Under the pieces are notes generated by a model that did not search any database, had not been told where the DNA came from, and saw only the letters and a program-made list of their open reading frames with translations. From a plasmid, in assembly GCF_056712565.1 (NCBI RefSeq), contig NZ_JBWXXM010000004.1: a DNA stretch of 64,000 nt. One strand, given 5' to 3'. Position numbers and translations under genes: made by a program. Shown here one piece after another: positions 3,867 through 32,944 of the stretch (positions within the stretch are counted from its first letter, which is position 1; the number at the start of each line of letters is the position of its first letter).

Positions 3867-4787
3867 TTATGGATTGCGCTTATGGATCTGGAAGCCGATT
3901 TTCCTGCCGTTTTTTATCTCTGAAAATTTAAGATATTCAATAGCTTCCAAATCTTTCATGGCTTTTCTGATAACGCTATTTTGCACGCTAACGGATGATT
4001 TGAGATTAAGCCTCGCTCTAAGGCGCTCAATGCTGACAGGTGCCGGGTTGGCGGGTAGAGCCTCAAAGAATGTATACAGTACCTTGGCCGTCTCTTTGCG
4101 CCCTAGTTTATCCAGCATCTTCAGCTTCAGGATTCGCTTATAGTCAACATAGTAAAGTTCAGATAGCTGTTTCTGCGGCTGGATCTCGATAACATCAAGC
4201 TCGGTATTCAGGCTGCTATATGCCAACAAGTTGACGTTAATGTTATTGAGATGACCTTTTGCCGCCGGGAAGCGGAATTTGACAACTGTCTGCTGAATGC
4301 GTGTCAGAGAGTCATCAATACTTTTACGGAACGCCTTTGAAAGGCGCTTACGTGGATAGCCGCATCGATCGGCAAACTCGGAGAATGGCAGGGTGATTAT
4401 GCCGTCATCATCAGGTGCGTAGTCAAACAACGCGGAAGTTATGCCCACCCACACCTTAAAATCAGTATCCATATCCAGGCGTGGACCATGAATTTCAATT
4501 CCCTCATAGCCTTCCTGCTCAACAATTTTGAGGCTTGATAGTTCTTCAGTTGCGTTCGTTGTGTTTGTTGTAACTGACGATCCGCGACGTAGCGCCACAT
4601 TGGTAGATTTTAAGGTTGGCACAAACACACCTAAGCGCAACAAAGCGATGGGTTGTATAGTGCTGTTGTTATTGGGCTTCAGGCTGTGGATTTCTCCTGT
4701 ATTTCCTGCAACTTCTTCAACGCTAAGGAAGCCTTTACTTTCTTCCGGCATCACGGTTTCTCCATGTGTGGCGCGGCCTGACGTCAA
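3867..4787 (-). CDS. repA: RepA plasmid replication initiator (iteron-binding)
   Basis: 306-aa ORF flanked by iteron arrays on both sides; RepA-like motifs (GPRLDMDTDFKVW); alternative start at 4751. Confidence 0.8.
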   Translation of the reverse strand: MTSGRATHGETVMPEESKGFLSVEEVAGNTGEIHSLKPNNNSTIQPIALLRLGVFVPTLKSTNVALRRGSSVTTNTTNATEELSSLKIVEQEGYEGIEIHGPRLDMDTDFKVWVGITSALFDYAPDDDGIITLPFSEFADRCGYPRKRLSKAFRKSIDDSLTRIQQTVVKFRFPAAKGHLNNINVNLLAYSSLNTELDVIEIQPQKQLSELYYVDYKRILKLKMLDKLGRKETAKVLYTFFEALPANPAPVSIERLRARLNLKSSVSVQNSVIRKAMKDLEAIEYLKFSEIKNGRKIGFQIHKRNP

Positions 4788-4835
4788 TTTGGATGGCTGT
4801 TATCAACAGCTGTGAATATTCAGACTCTAAAATCG

Positions 4836-4933
4836 CTTACAGTCAATGTTTCTGTCGCGTATAGTCAACAATAAATCGCGTGCAGTCAACAATAAATCGT
4901 GCACAGTCAACATAAAATCGCGTATAGTCAATG
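4836..4933. repeat. origin iterons, 5 copies at about 21-bp spacing
   Basis: CGCGTATAGTCAAC-type repeats at 4836, 4857, 4877, 4898, 4919 directly upstream of repA. Confidence 0.75.
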
Positions 4934-4935
4934 TT

Positions 4936-5043
4936 GATCCCATTTCAGGCCAGTAATGACGCGGCTTACAGCGATCCGGGATCTTCTTTGGATCTTCCTA
5001 GGTTCTCTTTAGGATCTGTTTATTGGATCTATGCTGTGGATAA
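4936..5043. promoter_or_regulatory. origin-associated GATC cluster (6 Dam sites) and DnaA box
   Basis: GATC at 4936, 4973, 4980, 4991, 5013, 5026; TGTGGATAAG at 5035-5044 is the reverse complement of DnaA box TTATCCACA. Confidence 0.65.
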
Positions 5044-5086
5044 GTTGAATAAACCGGCCAACAAAGCCGGTTGGAAGGAAGTCATA

Positions 5087-5479
5087 TTATTCTACGCTTT
5101 CGATAAGAAGACCATGTTCATAACATTTAAGCTCATCGCCTTCATACAGGAATTGGTATCCAATACCACCATTTTCATGGACATTAGGGAATAACTCATA
5201 ACTCACTGAAGAGCAAATCACACCAATGCAGCGATCAACGCCTTCTCGTTCTTCAGTGCTGAAAAAATCCTCTTCGGTAAGAACATGAGTACATTGCTCA
5301 TCAGCATAGGTCGGAAATACATGCTCGATGCAATCCGGGTGTTTTAAACCAAGCTGATCGGCAAGCTCGAAAGCATGACGGTATTGTTCAGATCCTGGCT
5401 TGCCAACAGTGATGTGCTCAATTTTGTAGATTGAAGTCGCTTTGTTGATAGTTTGCTTTACTGTTACTTTATCAGACAT
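5087..5479 (-). CDS. hypothetical protein (upfA-like position)
   Basis: 130-aa ORF upstream of repA origin in same orientation as neighbours. Confidence 0.5.
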   Translation of the reverse strand: MSDKVTVKQTINKATSIYKIEHITVGKPGSEQYRHAFELADQLGLKHPDCIEHVFPTYADEQCTHVLTEEDFFSTEEREGVDRCIGVICSSVSYELFPNVHENGGIGYQFLYEGDELKCYEHGLLIESVE

Positions 5480-5490
5480 AAAAATCCCTT

Positions 5491-5742
5491 TTAGTTACCG
5501 CTGATAGCGCGGTTGTAATCATTAACGTTGCGATTCTTCCTGTTAATCCCCATCAGCATCGTTTCTGTATCGAGGATATACGCTGGCAGATCATCAAAAT
5601 ATTCACTGCTAAACTCTGGCATTCTGCACATAAATGCACTTTTGGGGGCAGGGTGGTTAACCTTTGTCGGCGTCGGCGTTAAATTCGCTGATCGACTCCC
5701 GGAGCAACCGCTGAGTGTCAGCAGGAATGCGCTGGCGAACAT
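5491..5742 (-). CDS. lipoprotein, o-spanin-like (Rz1-like)
   Basis: Signal peptide MFASAFLLTLSGC with lipobox, Pro-rich mature part; overlaps 3-prime end of the upstream coiled-coil membrane ORF in another frame. Confidence 0.5.
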   Translation of the reverse strand: MFASAFLLTLSGCSGSRSANLTPTPTKVNHPAPKSAFMCRMPEFSSEYFDDLPAYILDTETMLMGINRKNRNVNDYNRAISGN

Positions 5743-26129: not shown

Positions 26130-26636
26130 TTGAGTATTTTCAATAAACACGCACACCAGGAACGTCCGTATATCGTCATAGTCGATATTGATGGAACAAT
26201 ATCAGAGGCAACTGAAGACAGACTGCATTTGCTTCCGCCACCAGGTAAAGGTGCATTAACAAAGGACTGGAACGAGTTTAATCTCGCCTGTGACACCGAT
26301 ACTCCCATCACTCCGGTTATTGATATGGTGCGCCAGTTATTTAACGTTTACACGGTCTGGTTTGTAACCGGGCGCTGTGAGATCGCAAGGGATAAAACAC
26401 GAGCCTGGCTGCGTAAGCACGTAACAAATGGGGCTGAGCCTTTGCTATCTATGCGTCCTGCCACCGATGACAGAAATGACGGCCCTGCAAAGATTGATCT
26501 CCTGAAGAAAATTGGTCTAAGTAAAATTGCGTTCGCGCTGGAAGATAAGATTGAAGTGGCGCGTGTTTTCAGGAGTCACGGCGTACTTACGTTAATGGTC
26601 AGGGAATATGAAAATGCACTTCTTCATCAACAATAA
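26130..26636 (+). CDS. HAD-superfamily phosphatase-like protein
   Basis: 168 aa with DxDGT motif (IVIVDIDGTIS). Confidence 0.55.
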   Translation: MSIFNKHAHQERPYIVIVDIDGTISEATEDRLHLLPPPGKGALTKDWNEFNLACDTDTPITPVIDMVRQLFNVYTVWFVTGRCEIARDKTRAWLRKHVTNGAEPLLSMRPATDDRNDGPAKIDLLKKIGLSKIAFALEDKIEVARVFRSHGVLTLMVREYENALLHQQ

Positions 26637-26652
26637 TTGCTCTAATAAATCT
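26636..26652 (+). promoter_or_regulatory. C1-operator-like site
   Basis: ATTGCTCTAATAAATCT right after the HAD gene stop. Confidence 0.55.
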
Positions 26653-26734
26653 TGATTTTTAAAACAGAGAAAGTGAAAATTAAAACATGCCGCAAGGCGC
26701 GGCATGTATCCAATCAATCACAGGAGCTGAAAAT

Positions 26735-26821
26735 ATGAACACGGCATTCAAAATCATTATGGCCGCGATCTATTTCTGGCTGTTCTCTATCACTTTTGGC
26801 GGCATCGTCGCACATGGGTAA
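26735..26821 (+). CDS. 28-aa hydrophobic peptide (single TM)
   Basis: MNTAFKIIMAAIYFWLFSITFGGIVAHG with AGGAG RBS 7 nt upstream; below ORF-track cutoff. Confidence 0.35.
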   Translation: MNTAFKIIMAAIYFWLFSITFGGIVAHG

Positions 26822-26830
26822 GGGGGATGT

Positions 26831-27409
26831 ATGAAAGGCGAAGTGAAAGAGCGCGGCATGATTTTTAACGATGAGATGGTCCGGGCAATTCTTGGCGGGA
26901 ATAAAACACAGACTCGCAGGATTGTTGAAGAAAAATTCTATGGACGGGCAGTGGCCGCAGAGTTGCTTGCCAAGCATTGTCCATATGGTCAACCGGGCGA
27001 TCGTATTTGGGTTCGCGAAACCTACCGGGTACATGGCAAAGCGACGGACGTCGCAACGCTGGTTTATCGCGCAAGCGTGCGTAACTCCTGGACAGAACAA
27101 ACGCACCGGGTTCCGGTCGAGGTTTGTAATAAACCAGTATCAGAAAAGTGGACGCCATCAATTCACATGCCGCGCTGGGCATCGCGCATTCTTCTGGAAA
27201 TTACCGACGTGCGTGTGGAACGGCTGCATGACATGAGCGAGGCAGATGCTAAAGCAGAAGGCGCAACTCCGGCGACGTACAAGATTACGCCATCTGAAGC
27301 TGTTTATCGCGTTGGTTTTGGTGATATCTGGCGCAGTATTTACGGGCAGGATAACTGGCTATCTAACCCGTTGGTATGGGTAATCGAGTTTAAGCGCATT
27401 CAGGAATAA
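26831..27409 (+). CDS. ASCH-domain protein (YqfB-like)
   Basis: GGNKTQTRR near N-terminus and C-terminal VWVIEFKRI resemble ASCH (GxKxxExR ... YVIEFK); alternative start 26858. Confidence 0.5.
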   Translation: MKGEVKERGMIFNDEMVRAILGGNKTQTRRIVEEKFYGRAVAAELLAKHCPYGQPGDRIWVRETYRVHGKATDVATLVYRASVRNSWTEQTHRVPVEVCNKPVSEKWTPSIHMPRWASRILLEITDVRVERLHDMSEADAKAEGATPATYKITPSEAVYRVGFGDIWRSIYGQDNWLSNPLVWVIEFKRIQE

Positions 27410-27412
27410 ACC

Positions 27413-28291
27413 GTGAGTATGCATCAAGTCGTCAGCTTTTCAGGTGGACGAACATCGGCTTATCTCGTTCATCTGATGGAAGCACAGCGAAAAGCTGGCG
27501 CTAGCGTCCATTTCATTTTTATGGATACCGGCTGTGAACATCCTCTGACGTATCGCTTTATTCGTGAGGTTGTGAAGTTCTGGAACGTACCGCTAACGGT
27601 GTTGCAGGTCGATATAAATCCAGAAATTGGGAAGCCAAATGGTTATACGGAATGGGAACCAAAGGATATTCAGACGCGAATGCCGGTGCTTAAACCGTTT
27701 ATGGACATGGTTAAAAAGTACGGTACGCCATACATCGGCGGCGCGTTCTGTACTGAAAGGCTAAAACTCACCCCTTTCACGAAATATTGCGATGACCATT
27801 TTGGGCGAGGGAATTACATCACATGGCTGGGTATTCGTGCGGACGAACCCCGTAGGCTGAAACCGAAACCGGGCGTCCGGTATCTTGCCGAACTGTCAGA
27901 TTTTGATAAGTCGGATGTTATCCGGTGGTGGCGAAAACAACCTTTTGATTTGCAAATCCCGGAGCACCTCGGGAACTGTGTTTTTTGCATCAAAAAGTCA
28001 ACGCAAAAGCTGGGGCTTGCATGTAAAGACGAACCAGGTCTGATGCGGGTTTTTAATGAACTGGTTACAGGCAAACACGTCAGGGATGGTCATCGCAGAA
28101 CAGGTAAAGACGTTATGTACCGTGGCCACCTGACGCTTGACGGGATTGCCAGAATGTATGCCGACAGTGACTACAGAAATTTGTATCAGGCGATGGTGCT
28201 GGCCAAGCGGTTTGATACTGGTTCGTGTTCCGAATCATGTGAAATCTGGGGTGACCAATTGGAGTTGAAATTCGAAGAGGTAGTGGAATGA
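27413..28291 (+). CDS. PAPS-reductase-like / PP-loop ATP pyrophosphatase family protein
   Basis: 292 aa; PP-loop SFSGGRTSAYLV near N-terminus. Confidence 0.55.
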   Translation: MSMHQVVSFSGGRTSAYLVHLMEAQRKAGASVHFIFMDTGCEHPLTYRFIREVVKFWNVPLTVLQVDINPEIGKPNGYTEWEPKDIQTRMPVLKPFMDMVKKYGTPYIGGAFCTERLKLTPFTKYCDDHFGRGNYITWLGIRADEPRRLKPKPGVRYLAELSDFDKSDVIRWWRKQPFDLQIPEHLGNCVFCIKKSTQKLGLACKDEPGLMRVFNELVTGKHVRDGHRRTGKDVMYRGHLTLDGIARMYADSDYRNLYQAMVLAKRFDTGSCSESCEIWGDQLELKFEEVVE

Positions 28292-28491
28292 CAATCGTAA
28301 AAACCCATACCGGTACCGTGATCACCAAAGATGGCCCGAAGGTAAAAAAACTGCACCAAACAGAGCGGATGTGGGTCGTTGGCAAAAACGAGTTTTACCA
28401 CAAAGAAACTGGACGCCGCCATTTTGCAGAAAATACGCGCCGCCGACTGCTGTTAGACACCATCAAGCCTATCGAGGTGAAGCATGTTTAA
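28288..28491 (+). CDS. hypothetical small protein
   Basis: 67-aa ORF, start overlaps upstream stop. Confidence 0.35.
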   Translation: MTIVKTHTGTVITKDGPKVKKLHQTERMWVVGKNEFYHKETGRRHFAENTRRRLLLDTIKPIEVKHV

Positions 28492-28723
28492 ACAGAACGA
28501 AAAAGCTATCGCTCAAATTGCTGATTATATCCCGCGTGCGTGCCGGGGTATGCAGTTGCAGGAAGCCAAAGCGCGCCTGGAGAAAAAAATTGCGCTCTAT
28601 ATTGATGACGGCTGTGATGCCGCCGTTCTTAACGCGGCGTTCGCACCAGCTCTTAACTGTCACACTCGGGAGTCTTTTTTTTCATGCATCGCAGCGCAAC
28701 TCCGCCAAGGAGGCAACCAGTGA
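28484..28723 (+). CDS. hypothetical protein ending in ..AAQLRQGGNQ
   Basis: 79-aa ORF; 3-prime junction AAGGAGGCAACCAGTGAG repeated at 29925. Confidence 0.4.
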   Translation: MFKQNEKAIAQIADYIPRACRGMQLQEAKARLEKKIALYIDDGCDAAVLNAAFAPALNCHTRESFFSCIAAQLRQGGNQ

Positions 28724-29364
28724 GTAACCGTTTTTACATGATGTGCTTGCGTGAAATTGTGGGTAATAACGCCTCATTCCATTGCCATAACGGCAATGGT
28801 TACAGTTCTGATATCGATCGCGCTCATGTTTACACGCTGGAAGAAGGCCAAAAAGCCTGGAATTGTGGACGAGATATCGATCAGCCTGTTTGCGCTGATA
28901 GCGTGGATGCAATGGCTGTGTGGCACGTTGATTGCCAGTACATCCCTACAGAAAGCCTGATTGAGTCAGATTGCACTGCGTATGTGGCCTACAAAAAAGG
29001 TAGCTGGAACGGCAACGATGTTTACTGGCTTCAACACGGTGGATTGCCAACAGATGACTTCAGTAAAGCGACCATCTTTAGCGTCGCCAACAAAAACGAA
29101 CCAGGAATAGTTTGGTTGCCATTTTCCATTGCTGATTCAGCAAAGCGCCGGACGTTCAATATCAATAACTTTAACCGCAGAACAATGGTTCAGGGCGCAG
29201 GTTTGGTCATGCCTGACTGGTTGAAAAAGCAGAACAGAAGAAAGAAGTCGCGAAGCGGGAAGGTGCGTTGGAATTGTCCGCATTGCGGAAAAATTACCTG
29301 GCAGTACAGCCCATATGATTTTGAAGGCTGTCGTGATTACAACTGTGAAGGATGGCGAGAATGA
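28719..29364 (+). CDS. Cys-rich hypothetical protein with C-terminal zinc-ribbon-like CPHC..C..C
   Basis: GTG start inside conserved junction with AAGGAGG RBS; about 215 aa. Confidence 0.45.
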
Positions 29365-31046: not shown

Positions 31047-31231
31047 AAAACCGTAAAGCAAAGATTCTGTTAGTTCGTAGAAACGCTCCTGGCGTCTGGC
31101 AGTGGGTGAGACTCAGCAACCGACGGATGGGGTTGATGAAATATTACGGGATGATGGATTGTGGTTTTTGCAAAAAGCCCAGCGCGGCGCAAAACCGCTG
31201 GAAAAACCATTTGCGCACTAAAGGAGAGTGA
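31043..31231 (+). CDS. small basic protein with Cys pair
   Basis: 62 aa MKNRKAKILLVRR...; shares N- and C-terminal motifs with the upstream frameshifted copy. Confidence 0.4.
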   Translation: MKNRKAKILLVRRNAPGVWQWVRLSNRRMGLMKYYGMMDCGFCKKPSAAQNRWKNHLRTKGE

Positions 31232-31232
31232 T

Positions 31233-31748
31233 ATGGCGTTAACACACCGCGAACTCTGTCAAATTGCGTACAAGTTCCTTAAGCGCAACGGGTTCAAGGT
31301 TTGTTTTCATGACCGCTTTATAGCTGTAACCAGTACCGGAGAACAGCCAGATGCTATGGGGTTCAGAAATTCAGCATCATGCCTGATAGAGGCGAAGTGT
31401 TCTCGTGCTGACTTGTTGGCAGATAGAAAAAAGCGTTTCCGTAAAAATCCCTCACTTGGCATGGGCGACTGGCGATTCTTTATTAGTGAGCCGGGAATTA
31501 TTTCAATTGAGGATTTACCACCTGGCTGGGGATTACTTCACGTTGTTAACGGAAGAGTACGGAAAGTACATGGGTGGCCCAAGGGTAATTGCTGTTGGGG
31601 TAATCCTGACGATAAGCCATTTACTGGAAATAAGCAGGTTGAATGCGATTACATGTTATCTGCATTAAGGCGCATGGAGTTGAGAGGGCACCTTAATGAA
31701 ATATATGACGGTGTAATTGTTAATAAGAAAGAAGGAAACGCGGCATGA
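31233..31748 (+). CDS. PD-(D/E)xK nuclease-fold protein
   Basis: 171 aa from ATG 31233 (RBS AAGGAGAG); motif ..EQPDAMGF..(12)..LIEAKCS. Confidence 0.5.
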   Translation: MALTHRELCQIAYKFLKRNGFKVCFHDRFIAVTSTGEQPDAMGFRNSASCLIEAKCSRADLLADRKKRFRKNPSLGMGDWRFFISEPGIISIEDLPPGWGLLHVVNGRVRKVHGWPKGNCCWGNPDDKPFTGNKQVECDYMLSALRRMELRGHLNEIYDGVIVNKKEGNAA

Positions 31749-32944
31749 TCACTATTACCAAAGAGCGACTGCTGACAATCAAGCAGTGGCGCGAAACATA
31801 CGGACCTGGTAGCAACGTTGTACTGCCAGCAGAAGAAGCGGAAGAGCTGGCACGGATTGCTCTGGCATCGCTGGAAGCAGAACCGGTGGCATGGACTGAT
31901 GAAGAGGAACTGCGCGATGTCAGGAAGTATGGTTTCGGTGAGATATTTCAGTGTCCGCCAGATAAATATGCGGACCCGCGTCGTGTAATCTCGCTGTATC
32001 GCGAGCTGCCAGCACCGGTAGTGCCAGATGATTGGCAACTCGTACCTAAGAAAATAACACTGGAAATGGAATGTGCTCTATCAAAAGCTGATAGCTATGA
32101 AATTGGTTGGCTATGGGCATTGGCAGCCGCACCTAAATACGAAGTACAGAACGCTAAACGCGTGCAAAACGCGCTTAACGCCTGCCGCGCCGCCATGCTT
32201 CAGTCCGGAAACTTTCGGGAAAACAAGAATTCGTCAACCAATAATTTTCGGGAAATCGCGGAAACGTCAACCAACTATCCGGCAATTCCTAGTGAGGTGT
32301 TGTCCGCAATCCTGAAGGTTGCCAGGATTCGTGCCGATTTCGATGATTTTGACGGTGACAGGCGAGGTATCGGTGATTGTCTGGATGAGGCTGAGCAAGA
32401 GCTTATCGTTACCATTAACAAATATGCCAGTCAGTTGGCAGCAGAACCGATAGCGACTAATGACGTTCGAGAGCAGCAGACAGCCGTTCCGCCAGTTCCG
32501 GAAATACAGGATGATGTCGCGCAAGCAATTGAAAATCTCAAGCAGAAGTTAGTGGAATGCAATCGCTATAACTACTGCGCAGATGCAGTTAAAGGCGTAG
32601 AGGATGCCTGCCACGCTGCCATGCTTCAGGGTAGGGAACGCCTTGTTCTGGATGCCGCTACCAGAACCGCCGCAGGAGGCGAAATGATGGATGTAAAAGA
32701 GAAGGTTTTGCAGGTGATGCGTTCCCGGGCTGCCCTGCAAGATAAAGCTCTCGGCGGGGAATATCCATTCAGGATGGCAACCTGGAATCTGCGGTTGGCA
32801 ATGGAGAAGGAATTTCCTGATGAAGAATGGCGGTCGGCAGATTTGCGCAAAATTCTTATGGAGCTGGCTAAAGATGGAACAGTATCCAAAGATACCCATG
32901 CCAGCCGGATTGGTCAGGCGGTATGGAGACTGGAGGTGAGGTAA
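31745..32944 (+). CDS. hypothetical protein with internal repeat
   Basis: 399 aa; repeated segments NALNACRAAMLQSGNFRE and GVEDACHAAMLQGRE. Confidence 0.5.
   Translation: MITITKERLLTIKQWRETYGPGSNVVLPAEEAEELARIALASLEAEPVAWTDEEELRDVRKYGFGEIFQCPPDKYADPRRVISLYRELPAPVVPDDWQLVPKKITLEMECALSKADSYEIGWLWALAAAPKYEVQNAKRVQNALNACRAAMLQSGNFRENKNSSTNNFREIAETSTNYPAIPSEVLSAILKVARIRADFDDFDGDRRGIGDCLDEAEQELIVTINKYASQLAAEPIATNDVREQQTAVPPVPEIQDDVAQAIENLKQKLVECNRYNYCADAVKGVEDACHAAMLQGRERLVLDAATRTAAGGEMMDVKEKVLQVMRSRAALQDKALGGEYPFRMATWNLRLAMEKEFPDEEWRSADLRKILMELAKDGTVSKDTHASRIGQAVWRLEVR

Follow-up and report, generated by a model that had tools for sequence, protein, structure and literature searches.

A probably facultative pairing of an ASCH-fold gene with ninC in a predicted C1-controlled accessory operon of a P1/P7-like phage-plasmid

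The 64,000-nucleotide stretch of plasmid DNA analysed here (the window; contig NZ_JBWXXM010000004.1 of assembly GCF_056712565.1, to which positions refer unless another locus is named) carries at 26735-28291 a short hydrophobic open reading frame (ORF), a gene for an ASCH-fold protein and a gene for a NinC-type PP-loop protein. All three ORFs are present where a first-pass annotation of the sequence had placed them. Over the 6 kb around the locus there is 100% identity to several E. coli plasmids (IncY, non-mobilisable, 93-100 kb), the gene order (pmgS, pap, accessory region) is syntenic with phages P7 and P1, and 15 matches to the C1-operator consensus are found in the window against 0.33 expected. 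Because of this plasmid identity, synteny and operator excess, we regard the window as a P1/P7-like IncY phage-plasmid. The features of the locus are collected in Table 1.

Table 1 Features of pap and the operon downstream of it, in window coordinates
Feature	Position	Strand	Remarks
pap	26130-26636		PNKP-type HAD phosphatase
C1 repressor operator, head of operon	26636..26652	+	ATTGCTCTAATAAATCT, 1 mismatch to consensus
Predicted sigma-70 promoters, P2pmgT and P1pmgT equivalents	26637..26680	+	inferred from P1 homology
10-bp G+C-rich hairpin	26685..26707	+	ACATGCCGCG...CGCGGCATGT, near predicted operon mRNA 5' end
Small hydrophobic ORF, 28 codons	26735..26821	+	AGGAG 8 nt before ATG
ASCH-fold protein, 192 aa, PmgT/Upf86.8 family (phrog_874)	26831..27409	+	YqfB-type GKTR motif, three insertions
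NinC-type PP-loop protein, 290/292 aa	27413 or 27419..28291	+	PAPS_reduct family, SspD/DndC-like
orf67	28288..28491	+	phrog_1226 E 2.7e-42; start overlaps ninC stop (ATGA)
orf79	28484..28723	+	phrog_1344 E 1.1e-52; annotated in RefSeq plasmids and Stx phages
214-aa protein, P7 Upf87.6 homolog	28720..29364	+	phrog_2457 E 3e-117; RefSeq CDS at locus 10721-11365
Two tandem Ead/Ea22-like genes, end of examined operon segment	29352..30697	+	PF13935 E 3.4e-10 and 9.5e-30; RefSeq annotation

The operator at the head of the operon occupies the position of the annotated OpmgT/Op88 in P1 and of Op(hea) in P7, and the promoter positions were carried over from the P1 annotation (P1 reference locus L003 7638-7681, equivalent to window 26637-26680). 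Read from this operator and the P1 annotation, C1 would keep the variable accessory operon downstream of pap silent in the plasmid prophage, and the operon would be transcribed on C1 inactivation.

The ASCH call of the first-pass annotation, with its likeness to E. coli YqfB, is borne out by the motifs GGNKTQTRR (which contains the GxKxxTxR pattern) and VWVIEFKRI and by the fold described below. Conventional searches gave little: the match to Pfam ASCH (PF04266) stays below threshold (E 0.034, 15.3 bits against a cut-off of 21.2), because insertions interrupt the domain. The protein belongs to phrog_874, listed as 'unknown function'; NCBIfam and PADLOC searches returned no match, and phmmer and profile searches against the PDB found nothing relevant. 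Alignment to YqfB with hhalign covered the N-terminal motif alone (E 0.0022, probability 13%), and a forced global alignment was wrong and was discarded. Its identity is 84% to P7 Upf86.8 and 43% to P1 PmgT (E 8e-51). A profile search over 1.84 billion representatives matched the PmgT family to 52,697 clusters at 50% identity with E <= 0.001, and to 21,798 with E <= 1e-30; a simpler protein search returned near-identical sequences alone. Among 136 diverse relatives ASCH is the sole Pfam family detected (25 at E <= 0.01, best 5.8e-6), and in a smaller set 14 of 19 relatives have a sub-threshold but exclusive Pfam ASCH match.

A structural model supports the same assignment. AlphaFold2 run on the 136-sequence alignment reached a predicted local distance difference test score (pLDDT) of 93.5 and a predicted template modelling (pTM) score of 0.86, whereas the shallow 19-sequence alignment gave an unusable model (pLDDT 52). 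The model has the PUA-like beta-barrel of the ASCH fold. Foldseek matched it to YqfB (E 2.3e-4, template modelling score 0.74 normalised on the target) and, in BFVD, to a viral 'ASCH domain protein' (E 1.7e-11). The octapeptide G23-N-K25-T-Q-T28-R-R30 is of the GKTR (YqfB) type, and the candidate catalytic residues are nearly invariant in the 136 relatives (K25 in 136, T28 in 134, R30 in 135 and E143 in 135). In local alignments K25, T28, R30 and E143 stand opposite YqfB K21, T24, R26 and E74, an equivalence that is based on sequence alignment and fold match. Three insertions in the core (approximately 31-55, 64-120 and 145-180) carry invariant residues of their own, E63, H112, R119, W167, N179 and W183.

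The GKTR and GKER octapeptides and the YqfB residues have been defined previously, and ASCH proteins of both motif types deacetylate N4-acetylcytidine (ac4C) in tRNA (bioRxiv 10.64898/2026.02.27.708502); ASCH is viewed more generally as a modified-base domain (PMC7641849; PMC12707154). On the strength of the model, the 192-aa protein appears to be a real but divergent ASCH enzyme that keeps the YqfB-type Lys/Thr/Arg/Glu set. Most likely it would be a hydrolase whose substrate is a base, nucleoside or nucleic acid with an N-acyl group or another modification, and the predicted fold and residues make an amidohydrolase-like role more likely than passive binding.

In other phages, relatives of the ASCH gene adjoin genes for MT-A70, Dam-like, C5 and N6/N4 methyltransferases, RusA and integrases. 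These neighbours are consistent with the reported association of ASCH with N6A methyltransferases (PMC4738411). ASCH genes immediately flanked by methyltransferases, which fall into these four classes, were seen at L051, L057, L058, L073, L075, L036 and L049 (around 4000-5600), the methyltransferase classes being read from translation motifs (DPPW for MT-A70); Pfam support comes from other loci (PF00145 and PF01555 in L166-L169). A separate observation concerns the reference P1 pmgT (L003 7832-8761). It is identical to the full-length gene of L040 up to approximately codon 235 and continues as unrelated sequence past ~8527, so that the last conserved ASCH strand (VWVIEFxR) is lost and the frame reads into pmgU. 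The pmgT of laboratory-strain P1 may be a truncated fusion.

The second protein was likewise recognised correctly as a PP-loop enzyme of the phosphoadenosine phosphosulfate (PAPS) reductase type: it contains SFSGGRTS and matches PF01507 (E 2.7e-9, 37.7 bits against a cut-off of 22.5), with the match spanning residues 6-72 alone. It also matches phrog_424 (E 2e-92), which PHROGs places in the category 'moron, auxiliary metabolic gene', and its best PADLOC model is SspD (E 1.5e-13, residues 3-146), followed by weaker matches to BrxP and DndC (~1e-4 to 3e-4). From 27422 on, the DNA is 92.4% identical to Shiga toxin (Stx)-converting phages, in which the gene at this place is annotated NinC and is followed by orf67 and orf79; the protein is 95% identical to NinC of VT2phi_272, PA2 and ArgO145. 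By this similarity the PP-loop protein is identified as NinC of lambdoid phages, an orthology judged against Stx-phage NinC (a Lambdavirus record is among the weaker nucleotide matches).

Across 71 distinct members of the NinC family, which extend down to 28-31% identity, the PP-loop SFSGG..S (S6-S13) is invariant, as are the blocks TG.EH, G.R.DE..R, H.GNC..C.KKS and C..SCE. Five cysteines are included (C111, C187, C190, C270 and C274), and these residues probably form a metal or Fe-S site. The C-terminal ECG[LI]H motif of CysH is absent from the NinC sequence, and similarity to CysH structures is marginal (residues 6-67, E ~0.007); for both reasons 'PAPS reductase' is a family label only. The partners of the SspD- and DndC-type enzymes (sspA/B/C and dndA/D/E) are not annotated in the flanking 18 kb. 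NinC thus resembles an SspD/DndC enzyme and, as far as its sequence and surroundings indicate, is not a member of such a phosphorothioation system. It would be a stand-alone PP-loop ATP pyrophosphatase whose most likely activity is to adenylate a substrate ahead of sulfur or group transfer. The literature treats phage PAPS-reductase homologues as DndC/SspD-like genes located in hotspots of anti-defence (bioRxiv 10.64898/2026.07.27.740549).

Whether the two genes form a unit was judged from their spacing and their neighbourhoods. The first-pass annotation had read a 3-nt gap between them as a sign of co-translation. Such a gap is found if ninC starts at the GTG at 27413, which has AGGA 7 nt upstream and follows the ASCH stop codon TAA at 27407-27409; with the ATG at 27419 used by RefSeq it is 9 nt. 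The gap carries little information on the pair in either case, because every junction of this operon is tight (ninC and orf67 overlap by 4 nt, orf67 and orf79 by 8 nt).

The neighbourhood counts describe an optional association. A search of IMG/VR with the ASCH protein gave 83 loci; seven of them have this NinC downstream, all with ASCH alleles that are 97-100% identical. Two more of these loci retain a ninC remnant of the first 23-39 codons (L009 3158-3274 and L011 4583-4651); in L011 the remnant is directly followed by orf67. ninC can be lost while both flanking genes are kept. In P7 the ASCH gene is directly followed by homologues of orf79 and of the 214-aa protein, with ninC absent, and P1 has pmgT and no ninC; lambda, conversely, carries ninC and is not known to have an ASCH/PmgT-like gene. 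When loci are collected with NinC instead, 11 of 79 have an ASCH gene upstream and 68 have none. The 11 NinC-linked ASCH genes share an identical junction and comprise three ASCH bodies (100%, 46% and 55-57% identity). What most often precedes NinC is a YfbR-like HD hydrolase, with a gene that overlaps the NinC start (54 of 79); in the example at L108 233-781 and 772-1650 the HD Pfam match has an E of 2.9e-5, just under threshold. This is a second arrangement of the type 'hydrolase then NinC'. In Stx phages the gene before ninC was checked for ASCH likeness and is not ASCH-like. In PLSDB, 27 plasmids carry the ASCH-ninC junction (>=80% coverage) against ~868 with the P1 leader, and no record of the phage collection carries the junction.

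A third small gene, orf67 (phrog_1226), accompanies NinC in the same neighbourhoods, both in this lineage and in a second, more distant one. By tblastn, 39 of the 79 loci retrieved with the NinC alignment have it downstream of ninC, and region-level clustering of downstream ORFs places it at 58 lineage-1 and 4 lineage-2 loci. An orf67 homologue (56% identical) was also seen upstream of an ASCH gene at a locus without NinC (L081 3406-3582).

The junction itself points to a mosaic origin. Since similarity to the Stx phages starts at 27422, the ASCH-ninC junction is a mosaic recombination joint, and the ASCH allele of the window is itself mosaic, with a C-terminal third common to non-P7 lineages. 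In the simplest history, recombination within the ASCH gene on the left and within the downstream ORFs on the right would have supplied a P7-like backbone with a segment of lambdoid-phage origin consisting of the ASCH 3' end, ninC, orf67 and orf79; the cassette is common to Stx and other lambdoid phages. The ASCH-NinC pairing is therefore mostly an occasional mosaic arrangement and not a fixed two-part system. Further downstream, the two tandem Ead/Ea22-like genes are diverged from one another and are typical of lambdoid early-left regions, yet they lie within a P1-type operon, which underlines the amount of lambdoid cargo that this P1 slot has gained. Beyond the examined segment, window 31161-32944 holds two ORFs with overlapping ends (195 and 399 aa), neither with a Pfam match, and the PLSDB table of an identical plasmid lists no gene in this region.

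The leader of the operon contains the small ORF, which encodes MNTAFKIIMAAIYFWLFSITFGGIVAHG with ~21 consecutive hydrophobic residues. It had been described as a 28-aa membrane peptide with a good ribosome-binding site, and the ORF, the Shine-Dalgarno sequence (AGGAG at 26722-26726) and a hydrophobic core of transmembrane length are indeed found; the ASCH ORF starts 9 nt past its stop codon. In nearly all P1-like loci sampled, the 28-aa peptide shows 100% amino-acid identity, including loci whose downstream gene shares just 43-84%, and databases list it as 'membrane protein' or 'hypothetical protein'. Elsewhere, at times in RefSeq, a 44-aa form starting at 26687 is annotated instead; in two loci the loss of 4 nt (26715-26718) disrupts the 44-aa frame and leaves the 28-aa frame intact. 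Five distinct substitutions were found in the ORF among the sampled loci, three of them synonymous (26812 A>G, 26812 A>T and 26806 C>T) and two singleton non-synonymous. This ratio is not significant, and selection on the peptide is not evident from the substitution pattern. The leader upstream is more variable than the ORF. Database variants carry non-conservative changes in the core (L16Q, G22D/C, G23D and G28R), and such changes hit the core as often as the non-coding extension.

The 10-bp hairpin ahead of the small ORF is perfect and appears in the minimum-free-energy fold of the leader. A scan called it as terminator-like on the minus strand, where a T-run follows it, yet no convergent gene lies there; we infer that it is a 5' stabiliser or binding site. 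As the terminator of an antisense RNA in a type I toxin-antitoxin pair it was considered and dropped, with no minus-strand promoter found and the hairpin placed at the predicted mRNA 5' end. An Rfam scan of the leader returned a chance GcvB match alone (E 0.98), and the scans that were run gave no antisense promoter, RNA family or family match for the small ORF. A fragment of 84 bp (26742-26825) recurs with ~99% identity in ~280 conjugative IncF plasmids (for example L085 3501-3584), where it is flanked by IS1 on one side and on the other by a type I hsdR (3' end). The copy has no start codon and is therefore a recombination remnant; the P1 annotation already records it for R124/3. Judging by these copies, the P1 slot that extends from pmgT to humD would be a hotspot of recombinational exchange with hsd loci of plasmids.

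Each of the three products also has a reading of its own that has to be weighed. The P1 name PmgT ('putative morphogenetic function') makes the 192-aa protein a virion morphogenesis factor, a label repeated in P1, UniRef and GenBank entries and in keeping with the pmg genes nearby. This is very improbable given the ASCH enzyme fold with its conserved catalytic residues, the missing last strand of the P1 reference allele itself, and relatives that unrelated phages carry in their early or accessory regions beside methyltransferases, RusA and integrase. Knock-down of P1 pmgT by CRISPR interference (CRISPRi) moreover leaves the plating efficiency at ~1 (PMC10695390). In the same mapping both P1 pmgT and lambda ninC (with polarity on Q complemented) were dispensable for plaques, a result that favours an accessory role over a 'morphogenetic' one. 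NinC, in turn, could be a true PAPS reductase, present as an auxiliary metabolic gene that aids host sulfate assimilation next to an unrelated ASCH gene, as its database name ('phosphoadenosine phosphosulfate reductase family protein'), its PHROG category and the weak matches to CysH structures would have it. We give this hardly any credence: the CysH and Pfam similarity ends within residues 6-72, the ATP-type PP-loop SGGRTS is intact, the protein has the invariant C..SCE end in place of ECG[LI]H, and SspD is its best defence-library match. E. coli, besides, already owns cysH.

For the small ORF, the first-pass annotation had proposed a toxin or membrane modulator, which would be expressed on induction. 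The strong Shine-Dalgarno sequence and ATG, the hydrophobic core, the constancy of the protein sequence across P1-like elements with recurrent changes at third codon positions, and the 'membrane protein' label of gene callers are compatible with this; nonetheless it is rather unlikely, as only five substitutions are available and do not differ significantly in kind, the database variants carry many non-conservative core changes, the entire leader is already highly conserved as DNA, neither an antisense partner nor a family match was found in the scans run, and the IncF copies lack a start codon. Alternatively, this part of the leader would be untranslated or serve regulation only. The small ORF belongs to a conserved promoter-leader segment; if translated, it would most plausibly be an upstream ORF (uORF) coupled to the ASCH start or a small membrane protein, and such a uORF has at least the likelihood of a toxin.

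The remaining question is whether the two enzymes share one function. Overall, the locus is best described, with reasonable though not high confidence, as a C1-controlled accessory operon in which the ASCH hydrolase and NinC are independent genes that form a facultative mosaic pair. The two enzymes would be separately functional accessory genes, probably in counter-defence or nucleic-acid modification, and may cooperate when adjacent without being an obligate two-component system. The first-pass annotation had instead proposed a paired module for nucleic-acid modification or demodification. Its chemistry is plausible, but the pairing is facultative and mosaic, and this leaves the module a weak proposition. 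In its explicit form, ASCH would recognise or deacylate a cytosine-type base in tRNA or DNA, NinC would adenylate and convert the same position or nucleotide, and co-translation would set their stoichiometry. Joining a PUA-like domain to a PP-loop enzyme is well known from tRNA modification, catalytic residues are conserved in both families, and in NinC lineage 1 three ASCH variants keep the gene order and its gap of 3-9 nt. Such a module is nevertheless unlikely, since most members occur singly (P1, P7, 68 of 79 NinC loci and 35 of 38 second-lineage loci), the usual upstream partner of NinC is the HD hydrolase, ninC has been deleted from some plasmids that retain the ASCH gene, all lineage-1 pairs have one junction and may go back to a single event, and tight spacing is general in these operons. 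Still more specific is a two-step pathway on a cytosine-type base of host tRNA, DNA or nucleotides, for example deacylation by ASCH followed by adenylation and sulfur or group transfer by NinC, with the effect that a host defence is disarmed or evaded; the HD-hydrolase/NinC pairs would then be an alternative 'hydrolase + PP-loop' cassette. This is a speculative and doubtful possibility.

Several observations weigh against the reading of independent genes under C1 control, and the first of these favour the module. In a second NinC lineage (28-31% identity), an ASCH gene directly precedes ninC at three of 38 loci, with a stop/start overlap (11 nt in L172, TGATG in L189 and L194), and both the junctions and the ASCH variants differ from one another. 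At L065 and L172, the NinC-family protein encoded directly downstream of the ASCH-family gene is 31% identical to the window NinC. ASCH-like genes are, furthermore, the sole upstream-neighbour family common to both NinC lineages. This is suggestive of a recurrence that exceeds pure chance shuffling, so that a functional link may be underestimated, although the recurrence involves few independent events. A simple consensus scan of the leader did not call the sigma-70 promoters transferred from P1. The NinC matches to Pfam and SspD are confined to the N-terminal half, and the putative counter-defence role is drawn from context and family resemblance.

The ASCH gene and ninC are thus new members of already known, non-essential phage families and not a new kind of system. 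A useful by-product is the structural assignment of the large PmgT family to catalytically intact ASCH enzymes. It gives this family (>50,000 sequence clusters) a concrete hypothesis of ac4C-amidohydrolase type and removes a misleading 'morphogenetic' label. Both families are very common in phages, and their function has been obscure for decades; NinC is, to our knowledge, among the last unexplained lambda genes. The optional ASCH adjacency and the usual HD-hydrolase neighbour point to nucleotide or nucleic-acid chemistry for NinC.

Comparison with known systems places both proteins more precisely. With E. coli YqfB (N4-acetylcytidine amidohydrolase; PDB 1TE7, 9KYF) the ASCH protein shares the GxKxxTxR motif, the equivalents of K21, T24, R26 and E74, and the C-terminal VIEFK strand. 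In contrast to YqfB, it is nearly twice the size, contains three insertions, scores below the Pfam ASCH threshold, is phage-borne and is predicted to be C1-regulated. Its gene resembles P1 pmgT and the P7 gene for Upf86.8 in its place after pap, in the C1 operator, in the leader small ORF and in the first 19 codons, which are common to all. It differs from both in being followed by ninC and in the C-terminal third, which comes from another lineage, and from the reference PmgT allele of P1 in having kept the last strand.

NinC has in common with SspD and DndC an N-terminal PP-loop ATP-pyrophosphatase domain, and its conserved cysteines are compatible with a metal or Fe-S site. Unlike the enzymes of those systems, which only its N-terminal half matches, phage NinC stands alone. 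It shares with lambda NinC the status of a non-essential accessory gene (PMC10695390). With the NinC of Stx phages (phrog_424) it shares 92-95% identity and the same orf67 and orf79 downstream. In lambdoid phages, however, ninC lies in the nin/early-left region, usually behind a YfbR-like HD hydrolase (in lambda, behind NinB), whereas the ninC of the window lies in a P1-type, putatively C1-controlled operon behind an ASCH gene.

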